Position numbers and translations under genes: made by a program. 52,770 bases of DNA, taken from Phage PEA2-3. Of this stretch, positions 369-52,652 are shown one piece after another (position 1 is the first letter of the stretch; each line of letters begins with the position of its first letter). Location of the stretch: sequence record MW508890.1, one strand, 5' to 3'. A model generated the notes under the pieces. That model made no database searches. It was not told the origin of the DNA and saw only the letters and a list, made by a program, of their open reading frames with translations.

Positions 369-2903
369 TTATTTTAACTTCTTAGCAGTGTCATATCCTC
401 GCTCTGTCAGGCAGTAAATGTTAGCAGATCGGCCTCTTGTGGGCTTATATATTTGGACTGCTAAATAGTCCTGGTCAATCATATCCTGCAGCATACCGTC
501 AATGACTTTGTTATTAGCTGTAATATTAAAACCGTAATTCGATTTAAACCAGCTCAAAGACTGACGAATAGCATATATGCTTAAACCATTCATCTGGAGG
601 TGTTCTTCCCGGATACTTCTCACGACACCCTCAGGATAATGCTTAACAATACCGTTCCATCCGCTTTTGGTGTAAAGGGCCAAAATGTCCCTGTAGACTT
701 TTAGGAAGCCGTCCACTACTTCGGCGTTGGTAGTTGGTGGTGCGACTATCCTGCTTGTGTTATTGACCCAGGCGGTTATACAACGAAGAACATATTTGTA
801 AGCCCATTCGATGTTGTCCCTGGTCATTACAGGAGCATCCCAGTTGTCGAGTAATCCAATAAGTGCTGCTATATTGAATACATACTCACCCATTCGGCCC
901 ACAAAGGCAGATGCTACTTCGTTATCCCTGTAATACTTGCGCATGTCATTAATATTGCACTGGTACTCGTACAGGAAGTCGTCATCGTCCGATTCGTCGT
1001 AAATAGGAATCGGGTCGTGCCTTAGTTTACCGTTAGGAGGGATAGCATTCACATAAGCGATTGCTTCCAGCTTCTCAATCAGCTCTTTGGAGAATTGAGT
1101 ACGGCGAATCTGCTGGCGACGTCCTACCTTCTCAGGTTTGGCAAACTCCGCTCGTTCATAGTTAGGGATGAACAGGAAGCGGGGCAAAAAGCCACTTGAG
1201 AAGTCTTGCTTCCGGGTGTTGTCAAGGATAAGCTCTTGAGTTGAGTCACCCAGGATAGAGTAACACGGTTCGCTTACTGTCTTGACATCATTGTCAGCAT
1301 TAGCACGTTTGATACCTGTCAGAATACCACCAACCTTACGCTTGGTTGAAGCGTCCATCAGAGCTTTCTGAAAGTTGTCCGGGTTGTTAGGATTCATGCG
1401 TAAGCCAGAACCTAAAGCCAGACCAAATTCAGGGTAGAACAACTGGACTGAATGGTATGACGGGTTGGACATCAGTTCAGCAAACGTCCTGGTTGCAAAA
1501 GTCTGTTCCCTTGGGATACGGTTAAGGCTGATAGGCGATGTATCAGGTAAGCTTGCCTGGATTTGTGGGAACATCTCAGTATACAACGATTTACCGATTG
1601 ATGAACCACCCACAAGAATGATGTTGGTTACCAGGAAGTTAGCATGACCGCCTACTGGACAAACATACTTGCGACCAGCGCAGTTGCTCAGGATGTTAAG
1701 AGCTGTGCCGATGGCATAGTCGTTAACCCTGTTAGCCGGAGATATGTTATCCTGTATCTCAGCAATAAGCCGTTTAAACCCGGACGGGGCCGTTCTGACG
1801 AATACATCAGAAGGCAGAATATCGTCGTTAACTTTAAACTCAACGTTCTCAGCCAGGGAGACACCTGAATTCTTGGCTAACTCTTTGTTGATGTCAAGAG
1901 CAAACTTGGTCTTGACGAATAAGCCGTCACGTTGCATTTCTTTCAGTACAGTCTTACCGACACGACTGAACCACTGGTGATACTTGTCAACAGACAAGTT
2001 GTGTCGACTTGGTCTGCGACCTTCGTATGCTGCAGCTTTGCTGGCCATGAAGATGCGTTGTGTAACTTCGTAGTTACGGGTTACACGAAGCAAGTCTTTG
2101 AGTATGCGGCTTAACCGTTCAGAACCGTCATTACTCACACCAACACCGTCTGGTGCATGCTCATTCAGGTAGTGCTCTAAAGCCCAGCGAGTATTATCGG
2201 CTAACTGTTCGTACAGCTCTTTGTCATACTCTTCGCCACGGTCTTCGTCTTGCTCAAACTCAACATCAATATCAGGTGCGCTTGCTTCAAGAAAGAACTT
2301 CTCAATTGCTGCATGCCATTCACGGGCTGAAACAGGATTAGCATTGAACTCGCTCAATACATTGCCTGTCATTACCAGGAACATCTCAGCCTTCTGGATT
2401 TTGATGTCCAGCTGTTCGTCTTTCTCTTTTGATGTTGCTGCAGTCCAGGGTAAAGGGATTGCAATGTGTTGCCCTTTGCCAGAGATTGACGTCTCAGCAT
2501 AAGCACCATGGGTACCCTCAATTATCGCTTTGTGGGTTGCTTCAATGTCTGGATTATCATCATGGTTGTCCAGGTCAACAAAGTACCACTGGCGAGGAAC
2601 AATCAAAGCCGGCACAAAGGTGATATTACCCTGTACAGCTTTAATCTTCATTTCACGATTGCGAATACAACGTGTCAGGGCGTCGTCGAAAGTCATCCAC
2701 TCTTCAGGCACAGTTGTGCTGAAGGAACGGCCTGATGGCGCTCTTGCAGGTTTCTTCGGTTTGGATTGAACTTCAAGAGTCTCGTCTTCGTACGTTAGCT
2801 CAAAGATAGCCCAGCGCTTCATATCTTTGAAGACTTGGGGAATCCCTTCTGGCTTAAAGTATTTCAGACCGAGAATATCACTCGGCTGACTCGTCATTGT
2901 CAT
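369..2903 (-). CDS. Large replication NTPase, primase-helicase-like (D5/P4-alpha-like)
   Basis: 844 aa; mid-protein Walker A GGSSIGKS (NFLVTNIILVGGSSIGKSLYTE); size and position typical of a phage primase-helicase; family by motif recall only. Confidence 0.55.
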   Translation of the reverse strand: MTMTSQPSDILGLKYFKPEGIPQVFKDMKRWAIFELTYEDETLEVQSKPKKPARAPSGRSFSTTVPEEWMTFDDALTRCIRNREMKIKAVQGNITFVPALIVPRQWYFVDLDNHDDNPDIEATHKAIIEGTHGAYAETSISGKGQHIAIPLPWTAATSKEKDEQLDIKIQKAEMFLVMTGNVLSEFNANPVSAREWHAAIEKFFLEASAPDIDVEFEQDEDRGEEYDKELYEQLADNTRWALEHYLNEHAPDGVGVSNDGSERLSRILKDLLRVTRNYEVTQRIFMASKAAAYEGRRPSRHNLSVDKYHQWFSRVGKTVLKEMQRDGLFVKTKFALDINKELAKNSGVSLAENVEFKVNDDILPSDVFVRTAPSGFKRLIAEIQDNISPANRVNDYAIGTALNILSNCAGRKYVCPVGGHANFLVTNIILVGGSSIGKSLYTEMFPQIQASLPDTSPISLNRIPREQTFATRTFAELMSNPSYHSVQLFYPEFGLALGSGLRMNPNNPDNFQKALMDASTKRKVGGILTGIKRANADNDVKTVSEPCYSILGDSTQELILDNTRKQDFSSGFLPRFLFIPNYERAEFAKPEKVGRRQQIRRTQFSKELIEKLEAIAYVNAIPPNGKLRHDPIPIYDESDDDDFLYEYQCNINDMRKYYRDNEVASAFVGRMGEYVFNIAALIGLLDNWDAPVMTRDNIEWAYKYVLRCITAWVNNTSRIVAPPTTNAEVVDGFLKVYRDILALYTKSGWNGIVKHYPEGVVRSIREEHLQMNGLSIYAIRQSLSWFKSNYGFNITANNKVIDGMLQDMIDQDYLAVQIYKPTRGRSANIYCLTERGYDTAKKLK

Positions 2904-7050: not shown

Positions 7051-7055
7051 TAGTG

Positions 7056-7084
7056 TACTTACCCCATGTAAGTGGTGTATAATA
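7056..7084 (+). promoter_or_regulatory. Promoter-like element (AAGTGG-N-TATAAT family, copy 1)
   Basis: cttacc ... aagtggtgtataat immediately upstream of gene 7111. Confidence 0.45.
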
Positions 7085-7110: not shown

Positions 7111-7341
7111 ATGAGCATCAATACTCTAGCACAATTTCGTTCCACACGTAAGCTTGTTGCAAAAGATGACTGCGACTTGTGGACATACGGTATTCATCAT
7201 GACTGGCACATCGTCGAGTCATTCGATGAACCCACAAAATACTCCGTCTGTGGCGAGGAGTTTGACACCCTGGAAGAAGCCGAAGAAGCTCTTTATCGTA
7301 TGTACTGCGATGAAGAATCACTTTACGAGGACTATCATTAA
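7111..7341 (+). CDS. Hypothetical protein
   Basis: ATG 7111 after gaggagagagaat. Confidence 0.45.
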   Translation: MSINTLAQFRSTRKLVAKDDCDLWTYGIHHDWHIVESFDEPTKYSVCGEEFDTLEEAEEALYRMYCDEESLYEDYH

Positions 7342-8225
7342 TGGTTCAGATTGTATCTACTAAACAAGCCGTAGAAAATAAGCGACCTAAGGTCGCTATT
7401 TACGGCGCATCAGGTGTTGGTAAAACCAGCCTGGCTAAGACCTTGCCTCACGATAAGGTTCTTGTCATTAACGCTGAAGGCGGTTTGATGTCGATCGCAG
7501 ATGCTGACATCGACTCTACGCCAATCAATACGTTCAACGACATTTTGGCGCTGTACAAATGGCTTACCGAAAGTAAGGATGCGCAGAAGTATGAGCATCT
7601 GATTTTCGACTCGCTGTCAGATGTGGCTGAAGTTTGCCTGGACTATGAGAAGTCGCAAGTCAACGACAAACGACAGGCTTATGGTAATACCAACGACAAG
7701 ATGATGTATATCATGCGTCAGTTCCGTGACTTGCCTTTCAGCGTTGCATACCTGTGCAAGCTCGAGAAGAATAAGGACGAGGTTACTGGTGCAATGTTGT
7801 ATTCACCTCTCATGCCTGGCCAGCAGCTACCTAAACAACTGCCGTATCTTATGGATGCGGTACTTGCTTTACGTATGACTGCACCTGACGCCAATGGTAA
7901 TAGCGAGCGCTACATCCAGACACAACCCGACTACCAATGGGAAGCTAAGTGCCGTAACGCACCAGGCCGTGAACTGGATGCACGTGAGCCTGCTGACCTG
8001 GGCTGGATTTATGACAAGCTGCAAGGTTATCATCCTTACCAGCTGTGGTACTATCATCCGGAGTCAGATAGCTACCTGCTTCTGACAGGTCGAGCTGCAG
8101 AACAGATGCAGAACGACGACCCGAACGTGCAGCTCACTAAAATCGGTTCGGACGAATCGAAAGAGAAGCACCAAGCCTGGATGGCGAAGAAAGCCGCTCA
8201 AGCTGAGAAAGGAACCAGCGAATAA
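7341..8225 (+). CDS. Sak4-like RecA-fold ATPase (AAA_24-like)
   Basis: Walker A in KVAIYGASGVGKTSLAKTL followed by VLVINAEGG, matching the short RecA-core ATPase pattern as I recall it. Confidence 0.6.
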   Translation: MVQIVSTKQAVENKRPKVAIYGASGVGKTSLAKTLPHDKVLVINAEGGLMSIADADIDSTPINTFNDILALYKWLTESKDAQKYEHLIFDSLSDVAEVCLDYEKSQVNDKRQAYGNTNDKMMYIMRQFRDLPFSVAYLCKLEKNKDEVTGAMLYSPLMPGQQLPKQLPYLMDAVLALRMTAPDANGNSERYIQTQPDYQWEAKCRNAPGRELDAREPADLGWIYDKLQGYHPYQLWYYHPESDSYLLLTGRAAEQMQNDDPNVQLTKIGSDESKEKHQAWMAKKAAQAEKGTSE

Positions 8226-8228
8226 AAG

Positions 8229-8261
8229 TGTTTACGCCATGATAAAAAGTGGCGTATAATA
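8229..8261 (+). promoter_or_regulatory. Promoter-like element (AAGTGG-N-TATAAT family, copy 2)
   Basis: tttacgcc ... aaaagtggcgtataat upstream of gene 8333. Confidence 0.45.
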
Positions 8262-8332
8262 AGCATCACGGCCGAACGCTGCCGGTAAAGCGTTAAACGA
8301 AATTAAACTAAACTTAAACAGGATACCAAACA

Positions 8333-8878
8333 ATGGCTGAATTAAACTTCAACAGCTCTACCGTCGAACCGCAACAGTCTTTTGACCCGATCCCGAAAGG
8401 CTGGTACAACTTCATGATTGAAGAGGTTGAGCTGAAGCCGACTAAAGCAGGCACTGGTTCTTATCTGTCCCTGCGTCTGAAAGTGCAGGAAGGTGAGTTC
8501 GCTAACCGTGTTGTATTTGACATGATTACCTACTCCAACCCTAATGCGCAAGCTGTTGAAATCGGTCATCGCAAACTGTCTGCGTTGTGTCGTGCGCTGG
8601 GTATTGTTGAACTGACTTCTACCGACTTACTGGAAAACCGTATTGTAGCTGGTAAAGTTGGTGTTCGTATCGACAAGACCGGTGAGTACGACCCACAAAA
8701 CGATATTCGCGAATACAAAGCGTCAACTGAAGCAACTACTGCAGTAGGTGGTCATTCTCAAGCAACTGCATCGACGACGAAGAAAGTAGGTGCAGGTGCG
8801 AGTACTTCAACGAAGGCGAGTGCTACTGCAACGGCACCTGGTGCTGACGACGGTGCAGCAGCTCCTTGGGAAGAATAA
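8333..8878 (+). CDS. Putative ssDNA-binding protein
   Basis: 181 aa directly after the Sak4-like gene; Ala/Thr/Ser-rich linker ending in an acidic/aromatic tip (DDGAAAPWEE) reminiscent of SSB C-terminal tails; weak inference. Confidence 0.35.
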   Translation: MAELNFNSSTVEPQQSFDPIPKGWYNFMIEEVELKPTKAGTGSYLSLRLKVQEGEFANRVVFDMITYSNPNAQAVEIGHRKLSALCRALGIVELTSTDLLENRIVAGKVGVRIDKTGEYDPQNDIREYKASTEATTAVGGHSQATASTTKKVGAGASTSTKASATATAPGADDGAAAPWEE

Positions 8879-8900
8879 TCCCTGCCGAGTAAATATTCAA

Positions 8901-8924
8901 TAGGGGCTTCGGCCCCTATTTTCG
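8901..8924 (+). terminator. Intrinsic-terminator-like hairpin with UUCG loop
   Basis: aggggc-ttcg-gcccct followed by attttcg. Confidence 0.5.
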
Positions 8925-8939
8925 TATACGGAGACTACC

Positions 8940-9425
8940 ATGCAAAAGAAGAAGATGGACAAGTGGGACAGGCGGTTTATGCGCATAGCTTGTGAAGTTG
9001 CGAGCTGGTCGAAGGACCCGAAACGTCAAGTCGGTAGCGTTCTTGTGGACCAGAACAAGCGTATTATTTCCACTGGATATAATGGTCTACCTACGCAGTT
9101 AGACTCTATAAGAATAGTGCCTAATAGCCTTAAGAACGCTCTAACTATTCATAGCGAGATAAACACCTTAGCTAATATAAGGAGTGAGTTAGACACTCCT
9201 TCATTAGGCCCGGTTACCATCTACATAACATACCCGCCGTGCGAACATTGTGCAGACATGCTGATAGCCAACCTTAACCTGGTACGTGTAGTTGCATTGG
9301 CACATACAGCTTCTCAATCCAAATGGAAGGATAGCATGGCAAATGCCGTCGCCCACTTGTGGGCTCATAATATTGTGTACGATGAATTCAGCGTTGAGGA
9401 GTTTAACAATGCCAAGTCCGTTTGA
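8940..9425 (+). CDS. dCMP (deoxycytidylate) deaminase
   Basis: Zinc-binding deaminase signature HSEINTL ... PCEHCA; about 160 aa. Confidence 0.75.
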   Translation: MQKKKMDKWDRRFMRIACEVASWSKDPKRQVGSVLVDQNKRIISTGYNGLPTQLDSIRIVPNSLKNALTIHSEINTLANIRSELDTPSLGPVTIYITYPPCEHCADMLIANLNLVRVVALAHTASQSKWKDSMANAVAHLWAHNIVYDEFSVEEFNNAKSV

Positions 9426-10287
9426 CGACCTGCAGAAACGTATTGACATCAAGATAGTCGAAGCCCACGAAAGAGAAGAACGACGCGGGCATCTTGGAGC
9501 ATCTCAGATAGGACACAACTGTTATCGCTATCTTTGGCACGTTCTGCACTGGTCGTTCAAGGAGAAGTTTACCGCTAAGCAACTTCGTCTGTTTGAGCGT
9601 GGTAACCTTGAAGAAAGCAGAATTATAAAATGGCTTCGTTCCGTATGCGACGAAGTGCTGGACGTCAATCCCAAGACAGGTAAGCAATGGCGCATACACG
9701 AATTCAATGGCATCTTCTCTGGGTCTTGTGACTGTGTAATTAAATACAAAGGCGTATGGGCACTTGCTGAATTCAAGACGCATGGCGATAAGTCATTTAA
9801 AGAGTTAGTCAAGCTCAAGTCTGTTAAAGCAAGTAAGCCGGTACATTATGCCCAGATGCAGGTATACATGCGGAAGCTTAAGCTGAATCAAGCTGTGTAC
9901 ATTGCAATCAATAAGAACACTGACGAGATGTATTTTGAAGTGGTCGATATTGACTTACTGGAAAGCGACATACAACTGAGTAAAGCGGAGGCTGTTGTAT
10001 ATGCGGAATCTGGTTTGGATATGCCGAAGATTTCTGAATCGCCTATTTGGTGGGAGTGCAAACCAGGGATGTGCGAATACCATCACCTGTGCCACAAAGG
10101 GGCAATGCCAGACAGGAACTGCAGAACCTGCCATTACAGTAAACCGCTTCAGGGCAAAGTGTGGTATTGCAACAAGCACCAGAAAGAACTCGAAACAATC
10201 GAAGAGCAATTAGCAGCTTGTGATGATTATCGCCCTGCTGATGTCTTCCCGCAGGATGAGAAGCCCGTTAAACTTTCCTTAAAATAA
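9409..10287 (+). CDS. PD-(D/E)xK nuclease, Cas4/RecB-like
   Basis: Start set at ATG 9409 overlapping the deaminase stop; D...EFK and QMQVY motifs; C-terminal Cys cluster (CKPGMCEYHHLC ... CRTCHY) suggesting an Fe-S or Zn module. Confidence 0.5.
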   Translation: MPSPFDDLQKRIDIKIVEAHEREERRGHLGASQIGHNCYRYLWHVLHWSFKEKFTAKQLRLFERGNLEESRIIKWLRSVCDEVLDVNPKTGKQWRIHEFNGIFSGSCDCVIKYKGVWALAEFKTHGDKSFKELVKLKSVKASKPVHYAQMQVYMRKLKLNQAVYIAINKNTDEMYFEVVDIDLLESDIQLSKAEAVVYAESGLDMPKISESPIWWECKPGMCEYHHLCHKGAMPDRNCRTCHYSKPLQGKVWYCNKHQKELETIEEQLAACDDYRPADVFPQDEKPVKLSLK

Positions 10288-10293
10288 AAGTAT

Positions 10294-10320
10294 ACTTTAC
10301 CACAAGGAAGTGGTATAATA
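10294..10320 (+). promoter_or_regulatory. Promoter-like element (AAGTGG-N-TATAAT family, copy 3)
   Basis: tttaccac aaggaagtggtataat upstream of helicase gene. Confidence 0.45.
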
Positions 10321-10345
10321 TATAAAGTTAATGAGGAGACGTTAA

Positions 10346-12016
10346 ATGGCTTTTGAAGCTCGCTGGTATCAAAAAGAAGCGGTCACAGCCTGGTGGTCGT
10401 ACTTCAATTCTTATAGTGGTAATCCACTTATTGTCATGCCAACAGGTTCAGGTAAATCGCCTGTGCTTGGTATGCTGATGAAGGATATTCTTACCAGCTA
10501 TCCGCGTCAGCGTATTCTTATACTGACTCACGTCAAGGAGCTGGTTGAACAAGACGCCAAAGCGATTGTTCGTCACTGGCCGCAAGCACCAGTATCAATC
10601 TACTCTTCAGGTGCAGGACATAAGGACTTTTCAGGTCGTATCGTTGTAGCATCAGTACAGTCAATCATTAAGAACCTGGAAGAAGCAGGCAAGTTCAATC
10701 TTATATTCATTGACGAGGCGCATCTTGTTCCTGAGAAGTCTGAAACAACATACCGTAAGGTTATTGCTCACTTCAAAGAGCTTAATCCTAAGGTAAAGGT
10801 AACAGGACTCACAGCAACTCCGTATCGCCTGGCAGGTGGTCACTTGCTGGACTGTGGTATATTTACCGACATCTGCTATGACCTTACAACACCTGACGCA
10901 TTCACCCGACTGGTAAATGAAGGCTTCCTGTCGCGCCTGGTCAACAAGAAAGTGTTAACCAAGATTGACACCAGTAATGTTGGTGAAAGGATGGGTGACT
11001 ACATCCCGTCAGAGCTCGAGAAGGTAGCCAACCAACATAGTATAACAGTCGCGGCTATTCGTGAGATGATGCACTACGGTAAAGACAGGAACCACGTTCT
11101 TGTATTCGCCACAAGTGTTGAGCACGCCCACAACATAGCAGACGAATTTAATCTGCGAGGGTGGCAGACTGTAGTTGTGCATGGCGGTCTTACAAAGAAA
11201 GAACGTGAAGCCACACTGGAAGAGTTTACAAGCGGACGAGCACGGGTCTGTGTAAACGTAAACGTACTGACGACAGGATTTGACTATCCTGAGATTGATA
11301 TGCTCGGTATCTTGCGCCCGTCCACGTCTGTTGCTTTGTGGGTGCAGATACTTGGTCGAGGATTACGTACAGCGCCTGGCAAGCATGACTGTCTTGTTAT
11401 GGACTTTACATCTAACACCATTGACCTTGGGCCTATTGACGACCCGGCTGTTCCGCCTCGTCTTGGTAAGAAGAAAAAGAAACGGTCAGAGAAAACACCT
11501 GGCGGTAAAGAGTGCCCTATCTGTCACCAGGTAAGTGGCTATGCAGCCCGTACATGTAAGCATCCGGCTAAAGGAAGTACGCCAGACGAGAATGGTGTAT
11601 ATCCGATGTGCGGACATGAATTTGAGTTTACAGTTAACGGACCTGCCATTGCCTTCACTTCATCAGAAGAAGAGGTAATGACTAACGGTCAGCTTCGTGT
11701 TGTGGATAAAGATGTTACGCTGGTAAACTATTCTTTATTCCAGAAGCAGGGACGACCTGACAGTATAAAGGTTGTGTATTACTCAAACCTGGAAGTGTAT
11801 ACAACATGGGTAAATATAGAGGCCCATGGCAATGCTAAGCAAATGGCAGATGCCTGGTGGCGTAATGCTGCAGGAACAGAACCGCCTGAAACATGCGATG
11901 AGTTTATTCGCCGTAAGGGTGAGCTGGCTATTCCTAAGCGCATCAAGGTATGGATTAAACGACCCTACCCACAAATCATGAACTACGACTGGGGAAACGG
12001 TTATGGCGCTCGATGA
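10346..12016 (+). CDS. Superfamily II DEAH-type helicase
   Basis: Walker A MPTGSGKS, Walker B FIDEAH; C-terminal extension with Cys pairs (CPICH ... C). Confidence 0.8.
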   Translation: MAFEARWYQKEAVTAWWSYFNSYSGNPLIVMPTGSGKSPVLGMLMKDILTSYPRQRILILTHVKELVEQDAKAIVRHWPQAPVSIYSSGAGHKDFSGRIVVASVQSIIKNLEEAGKFNLIFIDEAHLVPEKSETTYRKVIAHFKELNPKVKVTGLTATPYRLAGGHLLDCGIFTDICYDLTTPDAFTRLVNEGFLSRLVNKKVLTKIDTSNVGERMGDYIPSELEKVANQHSITVAAIREMMHYGKDRNHVLVFATSVEHAHNIADEFNLRGWQTVVVHGGLTKKEREATLEEFTSGRARVCVNVNVLTTGFDYPEIDMLGILRPSTSVALWVQILGRGLRTAPGKHDCLVMDFTSNTIDLGPIDDPAVPPRLGKKKKKRSEKTPGGKECPICHQVSGYAARTCKHPAKGSTPDENGVYPMCGHEFEFTVNGPAIAFTSSEEEVMTNGQLRVVDKDVTLVNYSLFQKQGRPDSIKVVYYSNLEVYTTWVNIEAHGNAKQMADAWWRNAAGTEPPETCDEFIRRKGELAIPKRIKVWIKRPYPQIMNYDWGNGYGAR

Positions 12017-12224
12017 CAGAGAACTATTTGAACGGGTAGCAACCCAGGCTAAAGCTTTACCACGGCATGTTCGCCGACAGCTTATTATATACTTGCAGGA
12101 TATGAGCTGTGCAAACTGCCGTAGTTTTCAGGCAGGAGGTTGCCTGTTATCCGGAGGCAAAACACCACCGCCGGCAGTCCTGTCTTCCGGATGTAAACTT
12201 TTTGACTATGATGTGCCTTTCTAG
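12003..12224 (+). CDS. Hypothetical small Cys-containing protein
   Basis: 73-aa ORF overlapping the helicase stop; CANCRSFQAGGC. Confidence 0.35.
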   Translation: MALDDRELFERVATQAKALPRHVRRQLIIYLQDMSCANCRSFQAGGCLLSGGKTPPPAVLSSGCKLFDYDVPF

Positions 12225-13475: not shown

Positions 13476-13874
13476 ATGAACCTACAACGTGTTGCTGAAG
13501 CTTATTACAGGATTTGGATACTTCGGCTAGAGGGCCAAATCGACTACGTGAACACCGTCGGCCGCGAAGATTACTTGCCTGCATCTTCTTTCCAGGAAGT
13601 ATGCAACATTGCTCAAACTCTTGAACATGAATTTGATAAAGTCAAGTTTACACGCGATGTGCAAACAAACTTTATCAAGTTTGAAACAACCATGCGCTGT
13701 AAATTCCCGTTTATCAAGCGCATATCCCGTACCGGCCTTTTCATTGTTCCCTTTCCTGTGGGTAAAGAACGTTGGGACACTTTAGAACAGGCTCGTCATA
13801 TTATCTGGTCTACAGAAATTAAGCGTAAGTTTATCGAAACTGTTTGTAAGGAGTTACGAAATGCGATTCAGTAA
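13476..13874 (+). CDS. Hypothetical protein
   Basis: 132 aa, RBS agaggagagatacaatg. Confidence 0.5.
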   Translation: MNLQRVAEAYYRIWILRLEGQIDYVNTVGREDYLPASSFQEVCNIAQTLEHEFDKVKFTRDVQTNFIKFETTMRCKFPFIKRISRTGLFIVPFPVGKERWDTLEQARHIIWSTEIKRKFIETVCKELRNAIQ

Positions 13875-14454
13875 AATTGCTGCAGGCGTTACCGCTTTTC
13901 ATGAGAAGTTTGACCTCAAGCCTGTTAGTCAAGGCGGTAAACCTGAGTTCAAGCTTCGTTACGACCGTCTTATTGAGGAGATGGAAGAAATTAAACAAGC
14001 TAAGAAGGACGGCGACAAAGCTGGCTTCTTAGATGGTATTGTAGATTTAATTTACATTGCCGCAGGTACGTTATACTTGTATGACCAGACTGCATGGTTC
14101 ACCAACGAATTTGAGTATCCGATTCTGTTAACTACGCCATGCGGATTTATGGACCGCTTCGATGCTGACGGCCTTATTGTATATGTTAAGGATACTGAAG
14201 ACACTCATTGCGACCGTCTGGCCCAGTTAATTATCCACCTGATTACCTGGTGTGCAAACAACAACTGGCCACTTGACGCAGCATGGGATGCGGTACAGGC
14301 TGCTAACATGGCGAAAGAACGCGCTAAGCCTGATGCAAGCAACAGCAAGCATAAGTCTGGTCAGGATATTGTTAAGCCTGAAGGATGGAAAGCACCTGAC
14401 ATCCAGGCCATCATCGACGCACACGTTAACCCGGCTCAAAAGGAACTGTTTTAA
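13861..14454 (+). CDS. MazG-like all-alpha nucleoside triphosphate pyrophosphohydrolase
   Basis: R..LIEEMEEI ... DGIVDLIY and C-terminal AANMAKERAK resemble the MazG/HisE EExxE...D and K...R pattern; RBS taaggag. Confidence 0.55.
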   Translation: MRFSKIAAGVTAFHEKFDLKPVSQGGKPEFKLRYDRLIEEMEEIKQAKKDGDKAGFLDGIVDLIYIAAGTLYLYDQTAWFTNEFEYPILLTTPCGFMDRFDADGLIVYVKDTEDTHCDRLAQLIIHLITWCANNNWPLDAAWDAVQAANMAKERAKPDASNSKHKSGQDIVKPEGWKAPDIQAIIDAHVNPAQKELF

Positions 14455-15338
14455 TGAAAACATACAGCACTGTCGATTCTCTTTACAGCGACATCATTTC
14501 TTTTATCCTGCGTAAAGGTGAGGATGTTGTAGACCGTACAGGTGTTGGTACCCGCCGTTGTTTTGGTACAGCATTTAAGCTGGCTTTCAACGACAACAAA
14601 CTGATGGTGCCGGTGTTTAAGCCTGTTAACATCAAAGCTGTTGCTGCTGAGCTTTACTGCTTTATCAACGGTATTTCAAACGTCGACACGCTAAAAGGCT
14701 TTGGCTGCAACTGGTGGGAAGGTAACCTACAGGACGCAAACAAACGTTGGGGTACGCCAGACAACCGTGACTTAGGTCCTGTGTACGGCGTGCAATGGAT
14801 TAAGCCATTCTATAAGAATGGTGTTCTTACTAACCAGCTTAAAGATGTTATTGAAACGCTGAAGGTTAAGCCTACTGACCGCCGGGCGTACATTACGGCA
14901 TGGAACCCACAAGAGATGGACGCCATGGCCCTTCCGCCTTGTTACCATGGTTTTCAGCTGTTCATTAACAACCGTAATGAATTAGAGTTGATGTTCCACA
15001 TGCGTAGCGCGGATGTTATTCTTGGCCTGCCTCACGATATTCTGTTGCATCAGATGTTGCAGATTACCATTGCTGCTGAGCTGGGTACTGGGGTAGGTGA
15101 TATGACTGTTACGCTGGGTGATTATCACATCTACCAGAATCATATCGATGCGGCAAAGATTTTCCTGCAACGTATCGTAAGCAATTCTGATACTACACTG
15201 GACACTAACTTTGAAGGTCGTCCTGACATTAACGCAATTTATGACGTGTCAGTGTTTGACTTCACTCCTGCCGATGTTACGCCAATGGTTGAGAAGTACA
15301 AACCAATGCCAAACATCAAACTCCAAATGGCCGTATAA
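14454..15338 (+). CDS. Thymidylate synthase (ThyA) family enzyme, probably a dCMP C5-methylase or hydroxymethylase
   Basis: Aligns by eye to ThyA: DRTGVGT, DLGPVYGVQW, AWNP, catalytic Cys in ALPPCYH, MRSADVILGLPHD, GDYHIYQNH; the conserved PFNI Asn position is Asp (PHDI). Confidence 0.7.
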   Translation: MKTYSTVDSLYSDIISFILRKGEDVVDRTGVGTRRCFGTAFKLAFNDNKLMVPVFKPVNIKAVAAELYCFINGISNVDTLKGFGCNWWEGNLQDANKRWGTPDNRDLGPVYGVQWIKPFYKNGVLTNQLKDVIETLKVKPTDRRAYITAWNPQEMDAMALPPCYHGFQLFINNRNELELMFHMRSADVILGLPHDILLHQMLQITIAAELGTGVGDMTVTLGDYHIYQNHIDAAKIFLQRIVSNSDTTLDTNFEGRPDINAIYDVSVFDFTPADVTPMVEKYKPMPNIKLQMAV

Positions 15339-15368: not shown

Positions 15369-16364
15369 ATGAGCAAGTTTAACTATGACACCAAACAAAT
15401 ACAGACTGCCGTTCAACAAGCTCGTCCCATCAAGTATACTGATAGTGGTCTTATGGGCAAAATATGGATTGCAGACGGAACAATCCATTCATACTACAAG
15501 AACGTATTACTACGAGCGCCATGTAAAGGATTTCCAGACCTGCAAGTGGATGCTGAATCATTTCGTAAGGCCGTTAATGCGGCAAGAACTGAACAGATTA
15601 CTTTTAACATTACAGCCGCTGGAAACCTCACAGTCACAGCAGGTGTACTTAAAACAAGAATGCAAGCGCTTAATGAACCAATACCGCCGCTTGCTACAGT
15701 TAACAACTGGTATTCAGCGCATGGCGAATTGCTCCCGGTATTAACTGCCTTAGCCAAATGGGTACCTAACGAAGCACCGCAGGTATGGGCAACATCTTTA
15801 CTTCTGCGCGATGGTTATGCTTACGCCACCAACGGTAAGTATATGATACGTGAGAAGCTGAACGTAGATTTTGAATTTGAATGTGCCATAGCCAAACCAA
15901 TGCTTGAGGCTCTGGTTAAGCTGAAGATGGAACCCACAAGTGTAGGTTACGCCCGCGGCCAGATGTTCTTCGGCTTTGCGGATGGTGTACAGATGGATGC
16001 CCCGGTACTTGCAGCCAAATGGCCAGACGTATCGAAGTTCTTCAATATGGAAATGGATATGCAGGCCATCACTCCTGAGTTCCTGGAAGTCATGGACCAG
16101 CTTACTGGGTATGACGAAGGTCAAGCCATCCTGGAGATAACAGGCGAGTCAACTGCAAAGGCAGACTTACCAGATAAGATTATTCCAAAGATGTCCGTCG
16201 ACATTAAGTTCCAGTCGACTAAGTTTAGTAAACCGTTCAACTGTGTTATTAGTCAGATGAGTAAACTGGCTAAAGGCATGGAAAGAATAGGACTGGGTAG
16301 TCAGGCGCTCAAAATGGAAAACTCAACTCGTACAGTTGTAATTGCGTATGTTAGAGGGGACTGA
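15369..16364 (+). CDS. Hypothetical protein upstream of DNA polymerase
   Basis: 331 aa; stop overlaps the polymerase start; any processivity role is speculation. Confidence 0.45.
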   Translation: MSKFNYDTKQIQTAVQQARPIKYTDSGLMGKIWIADGTIHSYYKNVLLRAPCKGFPDLQVDAESFRKAVNAARTEQITFNITAAGNLTVTAGVLKTRMQALNEPIPPLATVNNWYSAHGELLPVLTALAKWVPNEAPQVWATSLLLRDGYAYATNGKYMIREKLNVDFEFECAIAKPMLEALVKLKMEPTSVGYARGQMFFGFADGVQMDAPVLAAKWPDVSKFFNMEMDMQAITPEFLEVMDQLTGYDEGQAILEITGESTAKADLPDKIIPKMSVDIKFQSTKFSKPFNCVISQMSKLAKGMERIGLGSQALKMENSTRTVVIAYVRGD

Positions 16365-18331
16365 TGAGCTTTTTATTCGATAGCTTCGAAGGTGCAAAGA
16401 ATGTTAAACCTATCAACCGTCCTATACCATACGTCAGGGATACTGGATGGAGGCCGCGCGCGCATTACCCGGACTTGTCTTCTGCAAAGATTATCGGTCT
16501 TGACTGTGAAACATACGACCCAGGGATGGATACAAATGGTAGTGGTTGGGCCAGGAGGGAGGGTCATATCGTTGGAGTTAGTATCGCTACGGACAACGGC
16601 TTCAAAGCTTACTACCCAATCAGACACGAGCTCGGCGAAGAGGATAACCTTCCAGCTGAGGAAGTACTTGGTTGGCTTCGGCTCGAACTCTCGCGACCTA
16701 ACCAAGTTAAAGTCGGTGCTAACATCACATATGACTTGGGCTGGCTTGCAGCAGAAGGCGTGGAAGTTAAAGGATTGTGCATGGATGTACAATTCGCGGA
16801 AGCATTACTTGACCCAGGCGCGCGTGTTGCACTTGAAGGACTTGGACGAAAATATGTAGGCGAAGGTAAAGACTCAGCCGAGATGTACCAATGGATTTCA
16901 GATGCTTATGGCTGTAAGCCAACAGGTGAAGCCAGAAAGTACATCTACAAAACGCCTCCTCGTCTTGTGGGTTACTATGCTGAATCTGACGCCGACTTAC
17001 CAATACACATTATCAAAGCCCAGTGGCCATTGTTAAGTCGCTGGTGTTTAACAGACGTATTCTATATGGAGTGCAAGCTCATTCCATTAATGCTTAAGAT
17101 GCGTTTTGCTGGTGTGCGTGTTGACCTTGACAAAGCCAAAGAGGCGGATGATACGCTTAGCGCTGAAATAAGGAAAATGCACCAGCAGATTAAAGACCAG
17201 ATTGGCTTTAACATTAACGTTAACTCAGGTCCGGACTTAGCTCTTGCATTTGACCATCTTGGTCTGGAGTACTTCAGAACAGCGGCGGGCAATCCGTCGT
17301 TTACGGCAGACTTCTTAGCAGGCTTACACCATCCGTTTGCGGAACTGGTGTCTGAGATTAAGTCTTATGAGAAAATCCAGTCCACGTTTATTCGTGGCTA
17401 TATATTGGGGATGAATACAAATGGCTTCCTTCACGGTCAATTCCATCAAATGCGCGGTGATGACGGTGGAACCGTTAGTGGTCGGTTTAGCTCATCTGAC
17501 CCTAATCTGCAGAATATACCGTCTAGACACAAAATACTGGGACCACTCCTTCGTGCTTGTTTCGTACCGGATGTCGGACACAGATGGGGATCAGCAGACT
17601 ACGCCCAAATTGAATATCGATTCATGGCGCATTTTGCAGTCGGCCCGGGCGCTGATGAGTTACGAGCAATTTTCGCGGCTAACCCGGAAGCAGATTACCA
17701 CAATGTTATGGTCGATATTATCAAGGAAGCCTCAGGTCACGTTATAGAACGTAAACCGGCTAAGACCATCAACTTTGGTTTGTTGTACGGCATGATGCTT
17801 AATGCTCTTGCCCGTAAGTTAGCAATGACGCCTGAAGAAGCAGAACCTGTTCTGAAGGCGTACCATCAGGGTGCACCATTCATTGGTGCTACCATGAAGC
17901 ATTATGAAGATTTATGTTATAGCCAGGGTTATGTAGAAACCTTTATGGGCCGGAAGACGTGGTTCAACAAATGGGTCCCAAAACGTGGTGGATTCGGGAA
18001 GATGCCTTTGCCATTTGAAGAAGCACGTCAGGAGTATGGTCCAAACATTAAACTGGCAGACACCCACAAAGCAATCAACCGAGTGCTGCAAGGGTCGTCA
18101 GCAGACCAGATGAAGTCTGCAATGCTGAAAGGGTATGAAGACGGTTACTTTGACGTGATTGGCGTACCTCGCCTGACGGTACACGATGAGCTTAACTTCT
18201 CTCTACCAACTGGTAAGCAAGCAGAAGATGGATTCTATGATTTCGTACGGGTCATGGAAACTGTGCTACCGCTTCGTGTACCTGTTCTTACTGATGCTAA
18301 GATAGAAAGTAACTGGGCAGAGGCACACTAA
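16364..18331 (+). CDS. DNA polymerase, family A (Pol I-like) with 3'-5' exonuclease-like N-terminal region
   Basis: Motif A DYAQIEYR, motif B RKPAKTINFGLLYGM, motif C VHDE; N-terminal DCETYD and YYAESDADL exo-like motifs. Confidence 0.9.
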   Translation: MSFLFDSFEGAKNVKPINRPIPYVRDTGWRPRAHYPDLSSAKIIGLDCETYDPGMDTNGSGWARREGHIVGVSIATDNGFKAYYPIRHELGEEDNLPAEEVLGWLRLELSRPNQVKVGANITYDLGWLAAEGVEVKGLCMDVQFAEALLDPGARVALEGLGRKYVGEGKDSAEMYQWISDAYGCKPTGEARKYIYKTPPRLVGYYAESDADLPIHIIKAQWPLLSRWCLTDVFYMECKLIPLMLKMRFAGVRVDLDKAKEADDTLSAEIRKMHQQIKDQIGFNINVNSGPDLALAFDHLGLEYFRTAAGNPSFTADFLAGLHHPFAELVSEIKSYEKIQSTFIRGYILGMNTNGFLHGQFHQMRGDDGGTVSGRFSSSDPNLQNIPSRHKILGPLLRACFVPDVGHRWGSADYAQIEYRFMAHFAVGPGADELRAIFAANPEADYHNVMVDIIKEASGHVIERKPAKTINFGLLYGMMLNALARKLAMTPEEAEPVLKAYHQGAPFIGATMKHYEDLCYSQGYVETFMGRKTWFNKWVPKRGGFGKMPLPFEEARQEYGPNIKLADTHKAINRVLQGSSADQMKSAMLKGYEDGYFDVIGVPRLTVHDELNFSLPTGKQAEDGFYDFVRVMETVLPLRVPVLTDAKIESNWAEAH

Positions 18332-45907: not shown

Positions 45908-46608
45908 CAGATTACCCCTTCCATAGCATCCATATGCTTACGGATAAAGTTAAGACGATCTGCCAGGTCGTCTGCACGACGTTTTTCAGCGTCACGCTGG
46001 GCAATAAGCGCTTTACGCTCTTCGCTGAAAGCACGGTTATTAGCAATAGCTGTACCATTAAGGCTACGAATCTCAGCCTCATACTCTTCAGCACGTTTGC
46101 CCATCAGTTGCTGCAGGTCGTTAATCTGTCGCTTATAGGCAGTGATAAGCTCAGACGCATCTTTATTGCAGCTTTCCAGTTTGCAGATATGCTCCTGCAG
46201 CATCTGTACATGTGCCCAGCCTTTAGCAATTTCGCGAGCTGACATATCAGCTAACATACGGTCTGACATAGGAGCGCCAGCGTAGTTTGAGGCCTTGCAC
46301 AAGTACCAGTTTAGAGCACTACTGAACATCTCACCAGTACGATATTCCAGCTCATCGTTGAACTTTTCAATTTCATCGCCAGAAGTCGCAATACTGATGC
46401 TGTGTGGACATCCTTCGACGTTAATTTCAATGCTGACGCCTTCAGTACCAGTCACTTCGTTATCTTCAAGAGCACGTTTGGCCAGGCGCAGCAGGTCTTC
46501 ACCTGACAGGTTCGGGTTAGTTGAACCCACAGTAACAGTTTTGTTGACGTCTCCTACGGTTGCTGACAGTGTGATTGAGGTATTGTATACTGGGCTCATT
46601 TGTTCCAC
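45907..46608 (-). CDS. Hypothetical protein with C-terminal coiled-coil-like region
   Basis: 233 aa; C-terminal charged helical segment. Confidence 0.4.
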   Translation of the reverse strand: MEQMSPVYNTSITLSATVGDVNKTVTVGSTNPNLSGEDLLRLAKRALEDNEVTGTEGVSIEINVEGCPHSISIATSGDEIEKFNDELEYRTGEMFSSALNWYLCKASNYAGAPMSDRMLADMSAREIAKGWAHVQMLQEHICKLESCNKDASELITAYKRQINDLQQLMGKRAEEYEAEIRSLNGTAIANNRAFSEERKALIAQRDAEKRRADDLADRLNFIRKHMDAMEGVI

Positions 46609-47102
46609 TCCTTATTAATACGTTCGTTGATGTATTCGAGAACTGCTTCAGGACCGTCTTCTTCAACAGTCCAGTCGTAAATGAAGAACTGCTTACTCAT
46701 CATAACCAGTTCGTCAATGAGGTTGTCATACTGATTGTATAACGCCTCAAGATTTTCCACAACACCAGGCATTTCGTCTTTTGTAGTTGCCAGTACCTTT
46801 TCAACAGGCGGCATACAAAAGATAACGATAGCGTTGCCACACATATCTGCTACATGTGATACATTAATATTGATGACAGGCGTACGTTGAAGAACCAGGC
46901 AATAGATATACTCAGATATAACAGCGCTACGGTCATAAATGCAATTGCCTTCCAACGCGTTTTCTTTGGCCTGTTTAGCCATGACCGATTCGGGGTCCTT
47001 ATCAACAGTATTATGAATAACGCTGCGGCCAGTACGAGATTTAAGGAACTCAATAAGTGTAGATTTACCAGCATTGTCGGGCCCCTCGATTATGATGTTC
47101 AT
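46596..47102 (-). CDS. dNMP / thymidylate kinase-like P-loop kinase
   Basis: N-terminal MNIIIEGPDNAGKSTLIEFL matches the Tmk P-loop pattern; 168 aa. Confidence 0.65.
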   Translation of the reverse strand: MNIIIEGPDNAGKSTLIEFLKSRTGRSVIHNTVDKDPESVMAKQAKENALEGNCIYDRSAVISEYIYCLVLQRTPVININVSHVADMCGNAIVIFCMPPVEKVLATTKDEMPGVVENLEALYNQYDNLIDELVMMSKQFFIYDWTVEEDGPEAVLEYINERINKEWNK

Positions 47103-47773
47103 TTGTGTAAACTCCTGTACCGTTGTATCAGAACTTGTTTGTTATCAACATATTCATCATTATAAGTGAAGTCGCTATCAATGTACATCATTAATTTGCT
47201 ACGATCCATTAAAATATCACTTGGACCTGATTGCTTGATTGTACTGATAAACATGTTGTCGATACGGAGTAAGTCTTTTGCGTGTTCTTCAAGGGCCGAA
47301 AGTATCAACTCGGCACCACCTACAATCCAGACGTCAGTACCTCTGGATTCAAGGTCTGCTGCCATCTCACCCAGATTATTGTAGCCTTCTGAAGCCATAA
47401 TCTGGCGAGATACCGGCAGCAGTATTCTGTGGGCTGACATAGGCAGACTCATAGTCATATACGTATTACGACCGGCTAACAATACGCTATGCCCGACCAT
47501 TTTTACCGTTACATCTGCTATCATATTTCGCAACTGGTCATTTGGGAATTGTCCACGTAGTTGCTGATATGCATTATAGCCTGGTTCTGTCGCAATTGAA
47601 TTAGTCATAGTCCTGAAAAAGAGCATGTCTGACGGACATTTCCATGGTAGACCCGATTTAGGAAGCGCACGAACCTCTTCCATGGTCTTGCACGAGTCAA
47701 CCTGATGCTTCATAAACTCCGGAGACAACCCGAATTCCCCATTTTGGCCCATTGCGAAGATTATATTAATCAC
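47099..47773 (-). CDS. folA: Dihydrofolate reductase
   Basis: Aligns by eye to DHFR: MINIIFAMGQNGEFG, LPWKCPSDMLFFRTMT, VLLAGRNTY, VWIVGGAELI; longer than bacterial DHFR (an insertion). Confidence 0.7.
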   Translation of the reverse strand: MINIIFAMGQNGEFGLSPEFMKHQVDSCKTMEEVRALPKSGLPWKCPSDMLFFRTMTNSIATEPGYNAYQQLRGQFPNDQLRNMIADVTVKMVGHSVLLAGRNTYMTMSLPMSAHRILLPVSRQIMASEGYNNLGEMAADLESRGTDVWIVGGAELILSALEEHAKDLLRIDNMFISTIKQSGPSDILMDRSKLMMYIDSDFTYNDEYVDNKQVLIQRYRSLHK

Positions 47774-52042: not shown

Positions 52043-52224
52043 TTGGCTTAATCCTGGCAACATGTGTGGCTACTCATGATTGTAGTTACAAAATTGTTGA
52101 ATACAAACCTGAATGGACTACCGTTGAACAATGTGTCGCTGATAGTCCATACACCCTGCTAAATCTTGGTATTATCCCTGCCAAAAATCAGCGTGTCATT
52201 TGTGACGAGCTGAAACAAGATTAA
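52039..52224 (+). CDS. Hypothetical small protein
   Basis: 61-aa ORF with GTG start overlapping the upstream stop. Confidence 0.3.
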   Translation: MIGLILATCVATHDCSYKIVEYKPEWTTVEQCVADSPYTLLNLGIIPAKNQRVICDELKQD

Positions 52225-52652
52225 TTAACGTGATATTGAGTGCCGGGCGCAACGTAATAGTTGTAGACCCGGCAAAATTGTTCCCATGTTAATTCTACTA
52301 GACCCACAAAGAGGCGGTTCGATGCCTCGCTAAAAGTCGTGCCACTTGGAAAACAGTCAATCACATCAGCCTTATTCATCACCACGGTAGGCTGTTTTCT
52401 TGGTAGTTCGTATATCAGTACCGGCATCTTGTTTTGAGCCTTTGCCGATGCCGCACACTGTCTCCACCATGTTCCGATAGACTTGGTATTGTGCTTCTTC
52501 AGTTCAACGCTGAAAAACGGTACACCCAGCAAGTCATCCCCGCCATTAATAGACTGTTGAAGATTGCGCTCAACAGTTAATCCGAACGAGCTATTGAACT
52601 TCTTAGCCATTTTGCGCTCAAAGTTCTGTCCTTTCTGCCGAATATTAACCAT
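52221..52652 (-). CDS. Hypothetical protein, possible PD-(D/E)xK-type nuclease
   Basis: 143 aa; GGDDLLGVPFFSVELKK gives a D ... ExK arrangement; weak motif-level inference. Confidence 0.3.
   Translation of the reverse strand: MVNIRQKGQNFERKMAKKFNSSFGLTVERNLQQSINGGDDLLGVPFFSVELKKHNTKSIGTWWRQCAASAKAQNKMPVLIYELPRKQPTVVMNKADVIDCFPSGTTFSEASNRLFVGLVELTWEQFCRVYNYYVAPGTQYHVN

Follow-up and report, generated by a model that had tools for sequence, protein, structure and literature searches.

A conserved gene cassette for a Sak4-type ATPase, a DUF669 protein, a Cas4-type nuclease and a RadD-like helicase in the replication module of phage PEA2-3

Phage-encoded recombination systems generally bring together an exonuclease and an annealing or pairing protein, as in lambda Red (Exo/Beta/Gam), RecET and the UvsX/UvsY/gp32/UvsW set of T4, the last of which adds a single-strand DNA-binding protein (SSB) and an SF2 branch-processing helicase. 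The Sak4 proteins are ATPases of the single-strand annealing family and are characterized by a core-only architecture of fewer than 290 amino acids (aa), without the RecA C-terminal domain or a DnaB domain (Lopes et al. 2010, PMC2896510). An SSB gene lies directly downstream of up to 80% of sak4 genes (PMC5928155), and in a survey of Firmicutes phages sak4 was usually located upstream of SSB genes, including those of the DUF669 type, and of ResIII/Helicase_C helicase genes (PMC8093625). The Sak4 of HK620 promotes the ATP-dependent annealing of SSB-coated DNA and needs the last six residues of the SSB (PMC5928155); ORF032 of Pseudomonas phage PA73 shows weak but significant single-strand annealing in Escherichia coli (PMC2896510); and the replication of Staphylococcus aureus phage phi11 depends on Sak4 and its cognate SSB, both of which also help to form concatemers (PMC5499656). 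The locus analysed here is a 4.7-kb region of phage PEA2-3 (sequence record MW508890.1; the whole stretch of 52,770 nucleotides (nt) is called the window), in which the genes of a Sak4-type ATPase, a DUF669 SSB, a Cas4-type nuclease and a RadD-like helicase probably constitute a cassette for DNA replication that depends on recombination and for the repair of double-strand breaks, situated inside the replication module.

The described arrangement used as the anchor of comparison is that of Burkholderia phage KL1 and Pseudomonas phage PA73 (PMC2896510; PMC3483164), chosen because the similarity to the HK620 pair is not significant. KL1, mirroring PA73, has the same four-gene order, and the four families (PHROGs 124, 6015, 1990 and 16) and their common strand are shared with the window, as is the Pro-Trp tip of the KL1 SSB. 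In both phages the cassette has as its neighbours the genes of a MazG-like protein, a processivity factor, PolA and a divergent primase, and the wider layout of the window is alike, with the cassette inside a primase/clamp/PolA replication module. The window differs from KL1/PA73 in the insertion of a dCMP deaminase gene between the SSB and nuclease genes, in a C-terminal extension of about 60–90 residues in Sak4 and in the acidic, rather than basic, residues that follow the Pro-Trp of the SSB; downstream, the window also encodes a small protein that ends in DVPF and is missing in KL1. The phages themselves are also distant, since that of the window is an enterobacterial myovirus whereas KL1 and PA73 are siphoviruses of Burkholderia and Pseudomonas.

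HK620 shares with the window a gene for a RecA-core ATPase beside the gene of a non-canonical SSB, whose tip is needed for stimulation in HK620 (PMC5928155). However, the HK620 Sak4 and SSB belong to phrog_2872 and phrog_743, the SSB misses Pfam DUF669 in hmmscan and ends in NDYPPF instead of the APWEE of the window, and the two genes are paired with Abc2 (anti-RecBCD) and not with a nuclease and a helicase of their own. The idea that the window pair closely copies the HK620 system was dropped in view of the missing pairwise similarity and of the DUF669 result, and the link is one at family level. With regard to the other systems, the window cassette resembles T4 in combining an SSB and an SF2 helicase with the exonuclease and the annealing protein; its annealing protein is of the RecA fold, in contrast to the Rad52-like fold of Red-beta and RecT, and no extra DNA-binding domain like that of UvsX and RecA was detected in it. 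Unlike in lambda Red, no Gam-like inhibitor was identified in the window.

The region is an ordinary recombination/replication gene cluster of Rosemountvirus, a genus of BP63-like phages of Salmonella and E. coli, and is already annotated. It matches 59 deposited phage genomes, among them Salmonella phage 8-19 with 98.2% identity over the full length, and BP63, birk, swi3 and others with 96–98% identity. The five open reading frames (ORFs) of an earlier sequence-only reading, including a dCMP deaminase between the SSB and nuclease genes, are present on the + strand with the coordinates given in Table 1; in the RefSeq record of phage birk the five equivalent genes have identical boundaries and are named 'Sak4-like ssDNA annealing protein', 'single strand DNA binding protein', 'deoxycytidylate deaminase', 'Cas4-domain exonuclease' and 'DEAD/DEAH box helicase'. 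The finding is therefore already known from these names in the same genus and from the published Sak4-SSB-helicase and Sak4-exonuclease associations. Modest additions of the present analysis are the predicted RadD relationship of the helicase, the Pro-Trp tip of the SSB, the SSB-like tail of a 73-aa protein and a putative second cysteine cluster in the nuclease.

Table 1. Positions of the cassette genes, neighbouring genes and predicted transcription signals in the window.
Feature	Position	Strand	Family match or motif
Primase	369-2903	-	
Promoter-like site before small ORF and Sak4 gene	7054..7083	+	T.TAC, ~18 nt, AGTGG..TATAAT; motif at 7071
Small acidic ORF, 76 aa, lineage-specific	7111..7341	+	equivalent coding sequence in birk RefSeq
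Sak4-type RecA-core ATPase (single-strand annealing family), 294 aa	7341..8225	+	AAA_24, phrog_124
Promoter-like site before SSB gene	8231..8260	+	TTTACG, 18 nt, TATAAT; 10/12 positions; motif at 8248
DUF669 single-strand DNA-binding protein, 181 aa, low-complexity linker, ...APWEE tip	8333..8878	+	PF05037
Intrinsic-terminator-like hairpin after SSB gene	8899..8924	+	9-bp GC-rich stem, UUCG loop, U tract
dCMP deaminase, 161 aa	8940..9425	+	PF00383 (dCMP_cyt_deam_1) 3.3e-21, phrog_174 6.1e-37
Cas4-type PD-(D/E)xK exonuclease, Cas4-like 4-Cys signature, second C-terminal 4-Cys domain	9409..10287	+	
Promoter-like site before helicase gene	10291..10319	+	AGTGGTATAAT at 10309-10319
RadD-like SF2 ATPase/helicase, 556 aa; two RecA-like domains, 4-Cys zinc finger, putative RadD-like C-terminal domain	10346..12016	+	
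Small 4-Cys protein, 73 aa, ends ...LFDYDVPF	12003..12224	+	phrog_23504 1.9e-34 (function unknown)
MazG-like gene	13861-14454		
Thymidylate synthase	14454-15338		
Processivity factor	15369-16364		
PolA	16364-18331		

The conservation of the gene order speaks for a functional unit. A set of 80 IMG/VR loci whose nucleases are about 40% identical to that of the window was translated in six frames, and the resulting ORFs were searched by jackhmmer with the proteins of the window. The order Sak4, DUF669, nuclease and RadD-like helicase on one strand was found in 56 of these loci, and most of the others are cut by the contig end on the side where a gene is missing; the nuclease family itself occurs in 413 deposited phage genomes of many hosts. 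The module of recombination and repair proposed by the sequence-only reading is thus strongly supported by a gene order kept in distant viral contigs and in KL1/PA73, and 'recombination-dependent replication' would describe it better than 'repair' because the cassette is embedded in a replication module. The deaminase does not belong to this unit, since the jackhmmer searches detected no homologue in the 80 loci and none is found in the KL1 cassette; it is a nucleotide-supply gene outside the conserved cassette, encountered only in the Rosemountvirus-type genomes examined.

Profile searches, named beforehand by the sequence-only reading as what could refute it, placed neither the ATPase nor the nuclease in an unrelated family: the former falls in Sak4/AAA_24 and the latter among Cas4-type PD-(D/E)xK exonucleases. 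In particular, residues 15-205 of the ATPase match Pfam AAA_24 (PF13479; E = 2.6e-28, 99.6 bits against a cut-off of 27) and the protein matches phrog_124, 'Sak4-like' (2.6e-51). Of 64 homologues, at least 95% keep each of the Walker A residues G22, G25, G27 and K28, E46 and the Walker B residue D90, and R190 and R205 are invariant among them. The protein is 27% identical to KL1 gp33 (E = 1e-23), a member of the same PHROG that in turn is 91% identical to PA73 ORF032, the tested Sak4. With 294 aa it compares with the limit of fewer than 290 aa of Lopes et al. (2010); no RecA or DnaB domain was detected by profile searches, and its tail (~235-294, about 60-90 residues) has no family match and is missing from most cassette relatives. 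A PDB sequence search returned as the only borderline match the Sak4 of phage 52A (8rc5, E = 0.079). The DUF669 gene begins 108 nt downstream of the Sak4 gene.

The second member of the cassette is assigned to DUF669 by PF05037 (E = 8.8e-14, 52.2 bits against a cut-off of 21), phrog_2300 and phrog_6015, 'single strand DNA binding protein' (1.4e-36); a PDB sequence search gave nothing meaningful, and the oligonucleotide-binding (OB) fold of this family is only inferred in the literature (PMC4889955). The C-terminus in the window reads ...GADDGAAAPWEE, with a DDGAAAPWEE tip whose last five codons (APWEE) lie at 8861-8875. A Trp is present within the last 10 residues of all 67 non-redundant cassette SSBs, against an overall Trp frequency of 1%, and 63 of the 67 carry the dipeptide PW; the KL1 protein, for instance, ends ...AAPWGQR. 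Relatives usually have two basic residues after PW whereas the window protein has two acidic ones (EE), so that of the SSB-like protein with an acidic tail seen by the sequence-only reading the SSB assignment stands and the acidic tail does not represent the conserved element. The conserved tip is Pro-Trp, as judged from these C-termini, and differs from both the bacterial DDDIPF and the NDYPPF of HK620. The RefSeq annotation of the genus contains no other SSB and no other 5'-3' exonuclease, and viruses with DUF669 are described as lacking other SSBs (PMC4889955); the DUF669 protein is probably the sole SSB of the phage.

The nuclease comprises 292 aa from the ATG at 9409, a start identical to that of RefSeq, whereas the mechanical ORF begins at a TTG at 9292. 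Its assignment is based on phrog_1990, 'Cas4-domain exonuclease' (1.8e-101), and on an alignment of the window protein with 29 homologues that are 38–83% identical. In these 30 sequences D108, E121 and K123 of the PD-(D/E)xK motif and Q149 and Y153 of the QxxxY motif are invariant, as are C38, C217, C222 and C228, which reproduce the one-plus-three cysteine pattern of the Cas4/AddB/Dna2 iron-sulfur nucleases; the nuclease with C-terminal cysteines proposed by the sequence-only reading is thereby borne out. The three C-terminal cysteines are spaced CX4CX5C in the window protein, whereas most relatives have CX2CX5C. A further invariant set, C238, C241, C254 and C271, marks a C-terminal domain of the type 'NCRTC...C...C'. 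In the AlphaFold2 model (pLDDT, the predicted local distance difference test, 94) the best structural matches are 5'-3' exonucleases and Cas4. The protein has no Pfam Cas4 or PDDEXK_1 match and no NCBIfam match, PDDEXK_3 remains below threshold (17.2 bits against 22), and a PDB sequence search gave nothing meaningful. It is described as a Cas4-like enzyme with a predicted 5'-3'-exonuclease fold, which by its cysteine pattern is probably an iron-sulfur protein. PD-(D/E)xK and QxxxY are common to this nuclease, to Cas4 (SSO0001, 4ic1) and to lambda Exo/LHK-Exo, and the distribution of one N-terminal and three C-terminal cysteines is that of Cas4; in contrast to Cas4, the CRISPR context is missing. 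Identity as a CRISPR Cas4 was rejected, as there is no curated Cas4 match and no cas genes lie nearby.

The nuclease start overlaps the end of the deaminase gene, in agreement with the sequence-only reading: the ATG is located 17 nt inside that gene, whose stop occupies 9423-9425, and a GAGGAG Shine-Dalgarno sequence is found at 9397-9402. Translational coupling of the two genes is plausible owing to this overlap and the Shine-Dalgarno sequence. As to variation of the nuclease gene among relatives, in Salmonella phage UPF_BP2 it is annotated as two pieces and the region is longer by about 0.6 kb, the gene of fHy-Eco03 has an HNH homing endonuclease beside it, and some homologues (P0091, P0017) have long C-terminal extensions ending EDIPF or TLPF.

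The last member, which had been recognised as an SF2 helicase and contains the Pfam domains ResIII and Helicase_C, can be refined to a RadD-like protein. In E. coli, RadD speeds up strand exchange by RecA and interacts with the tip of SSB (PMC8887467; PMC10238739). A PDB sequence search with the window protein retrieved E. coli RadD (6jde) at E = 4.4e-62, the next match being at 8e-19, and the NCBIfam family heli_RadD_YejH (NF053632) matched at E = 2.8e-86, the next family being at 7e-20. By BLASTP against RadD of strain MG1655 the protein is 33% identical over residues 1-428 (E = 2e-72), a segment that takes in the two RecA-like domains and runs into the beginning of the zinc finger. The C-terminal domain shows no BLAST similarity to RadD, whereas a profile of 30 helicases of the phage family aligns with RadD end to end by hhalign, as far as RadD residue 578. 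Every family member has the zinc-finger cysteines C390, C393, C404 and C422, and the zinc-finger region is shorter than in E. coli RadD (6jde / 7r7j). With the AlphaFold2 model (pLDDT 83) the eight best PDB matches of Foldseek are all RadD chains (E about 1e-37), the alignment spanning about 600 columns with a template-modelling score of only 0.54; the next family is XPB at about 1e-15 to 1e-16, some 20 orders of magnitude weaker. Metagenomic relatives are labelled 'DNA repair protein RadD' by the JGI pipeline. A restriction-type (EcoAI/ResIII) or XPB identity was rejected, with 7e-20 and 8e-12 against the 2.8e-86 of RadD. The protein is best described, from these profile and alignment results, as a phage paralogue or homologue of RadD and not as an equivalog. 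E. coli RadD works with full-length RecA, whereas its window homologue is phage-encoded beside Sak4.

In the cassette for recombination-dependent replication and double-strand-break repair favoured here, the following course of events, drawn throughout from homology, can be envisaged. The nuclease of Cas4/lambda-Exo fold would resect the 5' strands at DNA ends, and the exposed single strand would be coated by the DUF669 SSB. Sak4 would be recruited to the coated DNA, probably via the C-terminal tip of the SSB, and would anneal complementary strands in an ATP-dependent manner, as the HK620 Sak4 does with its SSB. The RadD-like ATPase may then remodel or extend the branched joint, by analogy with the action of E. 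coli RadD on RecA strand exchange and branched intermediates, and the resolvase (52221-52652, - strand) together with PolA, clamp and primase would complete the repair or prime new forks, giving concatemers for packaging. The deaminase would play no part in these steps, although translation of the nuclease is probably coupled to it.

Several points weigh against this interpretation. The PA73 Sak4 acts in E. coli only a few-fold over background and about 2000-fold below Red-beta (PMC2896510), the HK620 Sak4 performs no strand exchange (PMC5928155), and the window Sak4 and SSB show no significant similarity to their HK620 counterparts by BLASTP (E = 0.74 and 0.38). The helicase scores 290.1 bits against NF053632, for which the equivalog cut-off is 720, and covers profile positions 2-387 of 573; moreover, the arginines R21, R49 and R145 of the SSB pocket of RadD correspond to N21, R54 and K151, so that one Arg and one Lys are kept. 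The separate promoter-like sites and the terminator-like hairpin after the SSB gene give no sign of co-regulation. Finally, the cassette lies among replication genes with no other annotated SSB or 5'-3' exonuclease, and some of its members may act mainly at the fork. The last point leads to a different explanation, in which the four proteins are mainly parts of the replisome and not a recombination system: DUF669 would serve replication as its SSB, RNA primers or flaps would be cut away by the Cas4/Dna2-like nuclease, the RadD-like ATPase would restart or remodel forks, and Sak4 would be a loader or mediator. The position between the primase and the genes of the processivity factor and PolA (15369-18331), which is alike in KL1/PA73, favours it, as do a PolA that has only 3'-5' exonuclease and polymerase domains and no 5' nuclease domain, so that primer or flap removal could fall to the nuclease, the RefSeq annotation mentioned above, the viruses with DUF669 as their only SSB (PMC4889955) and the requirement of phi11 replication for Sak4 and SSB (PMC5499656). 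However, the nearest families of three of the members, Sak4, the lambda-Exo/Cas4-type exonucleases and RadD, are recombination proteins; a replicative helicase may already be provided, because the primase has a match of the primase/helicase type and a weak one to DUF3987; and the two explanations overlap, since recombination-dependent replication satisfies both. That some members act mainly at the fork is a serious alternative, though a predominantly replisomal role of the four proteins is on balance unlikely.

The remaining explanations are weaker. A counter-defence or host-takeover set, in which the nuclease degrades host or competitor DNA and the C-terminal tails hijack or block partners of the host SSB, would make sense of the 73-aa protein, whose tail is like the host SSB tip and could compete for SSB-interacting proteins, and defence systems are known to target phage recombinases (PMC11846896), hence an arms-race pressure on the region. 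The strict order of the four genes with replication genes across very different hosts and the conservation of all the catalytic motifs do not fit such a role, and no match to a known anti-defence family was seen, the PADLOC library not having been searched; it is considered very unlikely. An accidental adjacency of unrelated DNA-metabolism genes in an early-gene region could be read from the promoter-like site that each gene or gene pair has of its own and from the unrelated deaminase in the middle, but order and strand are kept in 56 of 80 loci whose nucleases share about 40% identity with that of the window, as well as in cultured Pseudomonas and Burkholderia phages, a conservation by which chance adjacency is excluded as a serious account and retains a negligible probability.

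Although compact, the cassette does not appear to be one operon. At least three transcription units are predicted from the promoter-like sites before 7111, 8333 and 10346 and from the terminator hairpin after the SSB gene, for which an RNA folding energy of -19 kcal/mol is calculated (z = -2.3). Four copies of the motif AGTGG(N0-3)TATAAT, with T.TAC some 18 nt before it, are present in the window where 0.13 would be expected, all of them on the + strand (3968, 7071, 8248 and 10309). A generic scan for sigma-70 promoters and terminators found 15 sites where 14 were expected, which is no enrichment, and only the phage-specific motif was informative. Promoters are annotated under this region in the GenBank record of BP63. 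All four sites lie in the rightward early/middle gene block.

The Sak4 gene is preceded by the small acidic ORF of Table 1, whose stop overlaps the Sak4 start (TAATG), and the two are likely to be translationally coupled through this overlap. No Pfam or PHROG match was found for the 76-aa product, nor any homologue among the 80 related loci; the product is very acidic, and the position of the ORF recalls the small accessory genes that precede recombinases in lambdoid phages.

The 73-aa ORF downstream overlaps the helicase stop by 14 nt, and its ...LFDYDVPF end resembles the bacterial SSB tip (DDDIPF). The picture of this family derives mainly from jackhmmer matches in the fetched loci, as searches for relatives gave only 3–5 proteins. 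In nine related loci the homologues terminate in (V/I)PF, apart from one that terminates in PL; two remote relatives end FDYKVPF and WDYDHIPF, and in other loci the same position is occupied by an unrelated family of small ORFs ending ...DDPPF. Ends of the type [IVPL]PF are found in 0.3% of all ORFs in the loci, and in 15 of 56 loci such an ORF starts no more than 150 nt from the helicase stop. The tail is not universal, because the ORF downstream of the KL1 helicase does not have it; in addition, in three loci an ORF of this type directly follows the nuclease gene and no RadD-like gene is present, which weakens the idea that the tail serves the phage helicase only. In the RadD family of phages (n = 30) the SSB-tip pocket keeps the kind of hydrophobic residues seen in RadD; at the position of R145, 27 sequences have K, at that of R49, 11 have R or K, and that of R21 is non-basic. 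The tails and this pocket are together no more than suggestive of a docking by peptide tips.

A more ambitious proposal unites these features in a self-contained recombination machine of five proteins wired by C-terminal tips. In this scheme the Pro-Trp tip of the DUF669 SSB, not being IPF, would recruit phage partners; the zinc-binding 73-aa protein, translationally coupled to the RadD homologue, would dock in the RadD-like pocket or on partners of the host SSB; the RadD homologue would supply the branch extension that a core-only Sak4 does not have, so that an annealase becomes a strand-exchange system; and the nuclease would be an unusual iron-sulfur exonuclease with two clusters. This proposal is, in our estimate, unlikely.

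The surroundings of the cassette include genes for the supply of deoxythymidine triphosphate (dTTP), scattered round the replication module (8940-9425, 13861-15338 and 46596-47773) and consisting of the dCMP deaminase, the MazG-like pyrophosphohydrolase, the thymidylate synthase, a thymidylate kinase (RefSeq name) and a dihydrofolate-reductase-like gene; the thymidylate synthase matches TIGR03284 with 172 bits against a cut-off of 108. The resolvase gene is named 'RusA-like Holliday junction resolvase' by PHROG and RefSeq, but its Pfam match is PDDEXK_15 (5.3e-18), a family of putative PD-(D/E)xK endonucleases of phages, and not a RusA family.

As originally posed, the identification of the module has little significance, the genes being already so named in RefSeq and the arrangement being published. 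The Pro-Trp tail of the SSB and the SSB-like VPF tail of the 73-aa protein are nevertheless testable candidates for docking motifs, with phage partners or with the host machinery, and cassettes of this kind may be possible recombineering tools where Red/RecT works poorly. In addition, a widespread cassette that pairs a RecA-core annealase with a homologue of RadD could be used to test whether RadD-type proteins are generic partners of RecA-fold recombinases.

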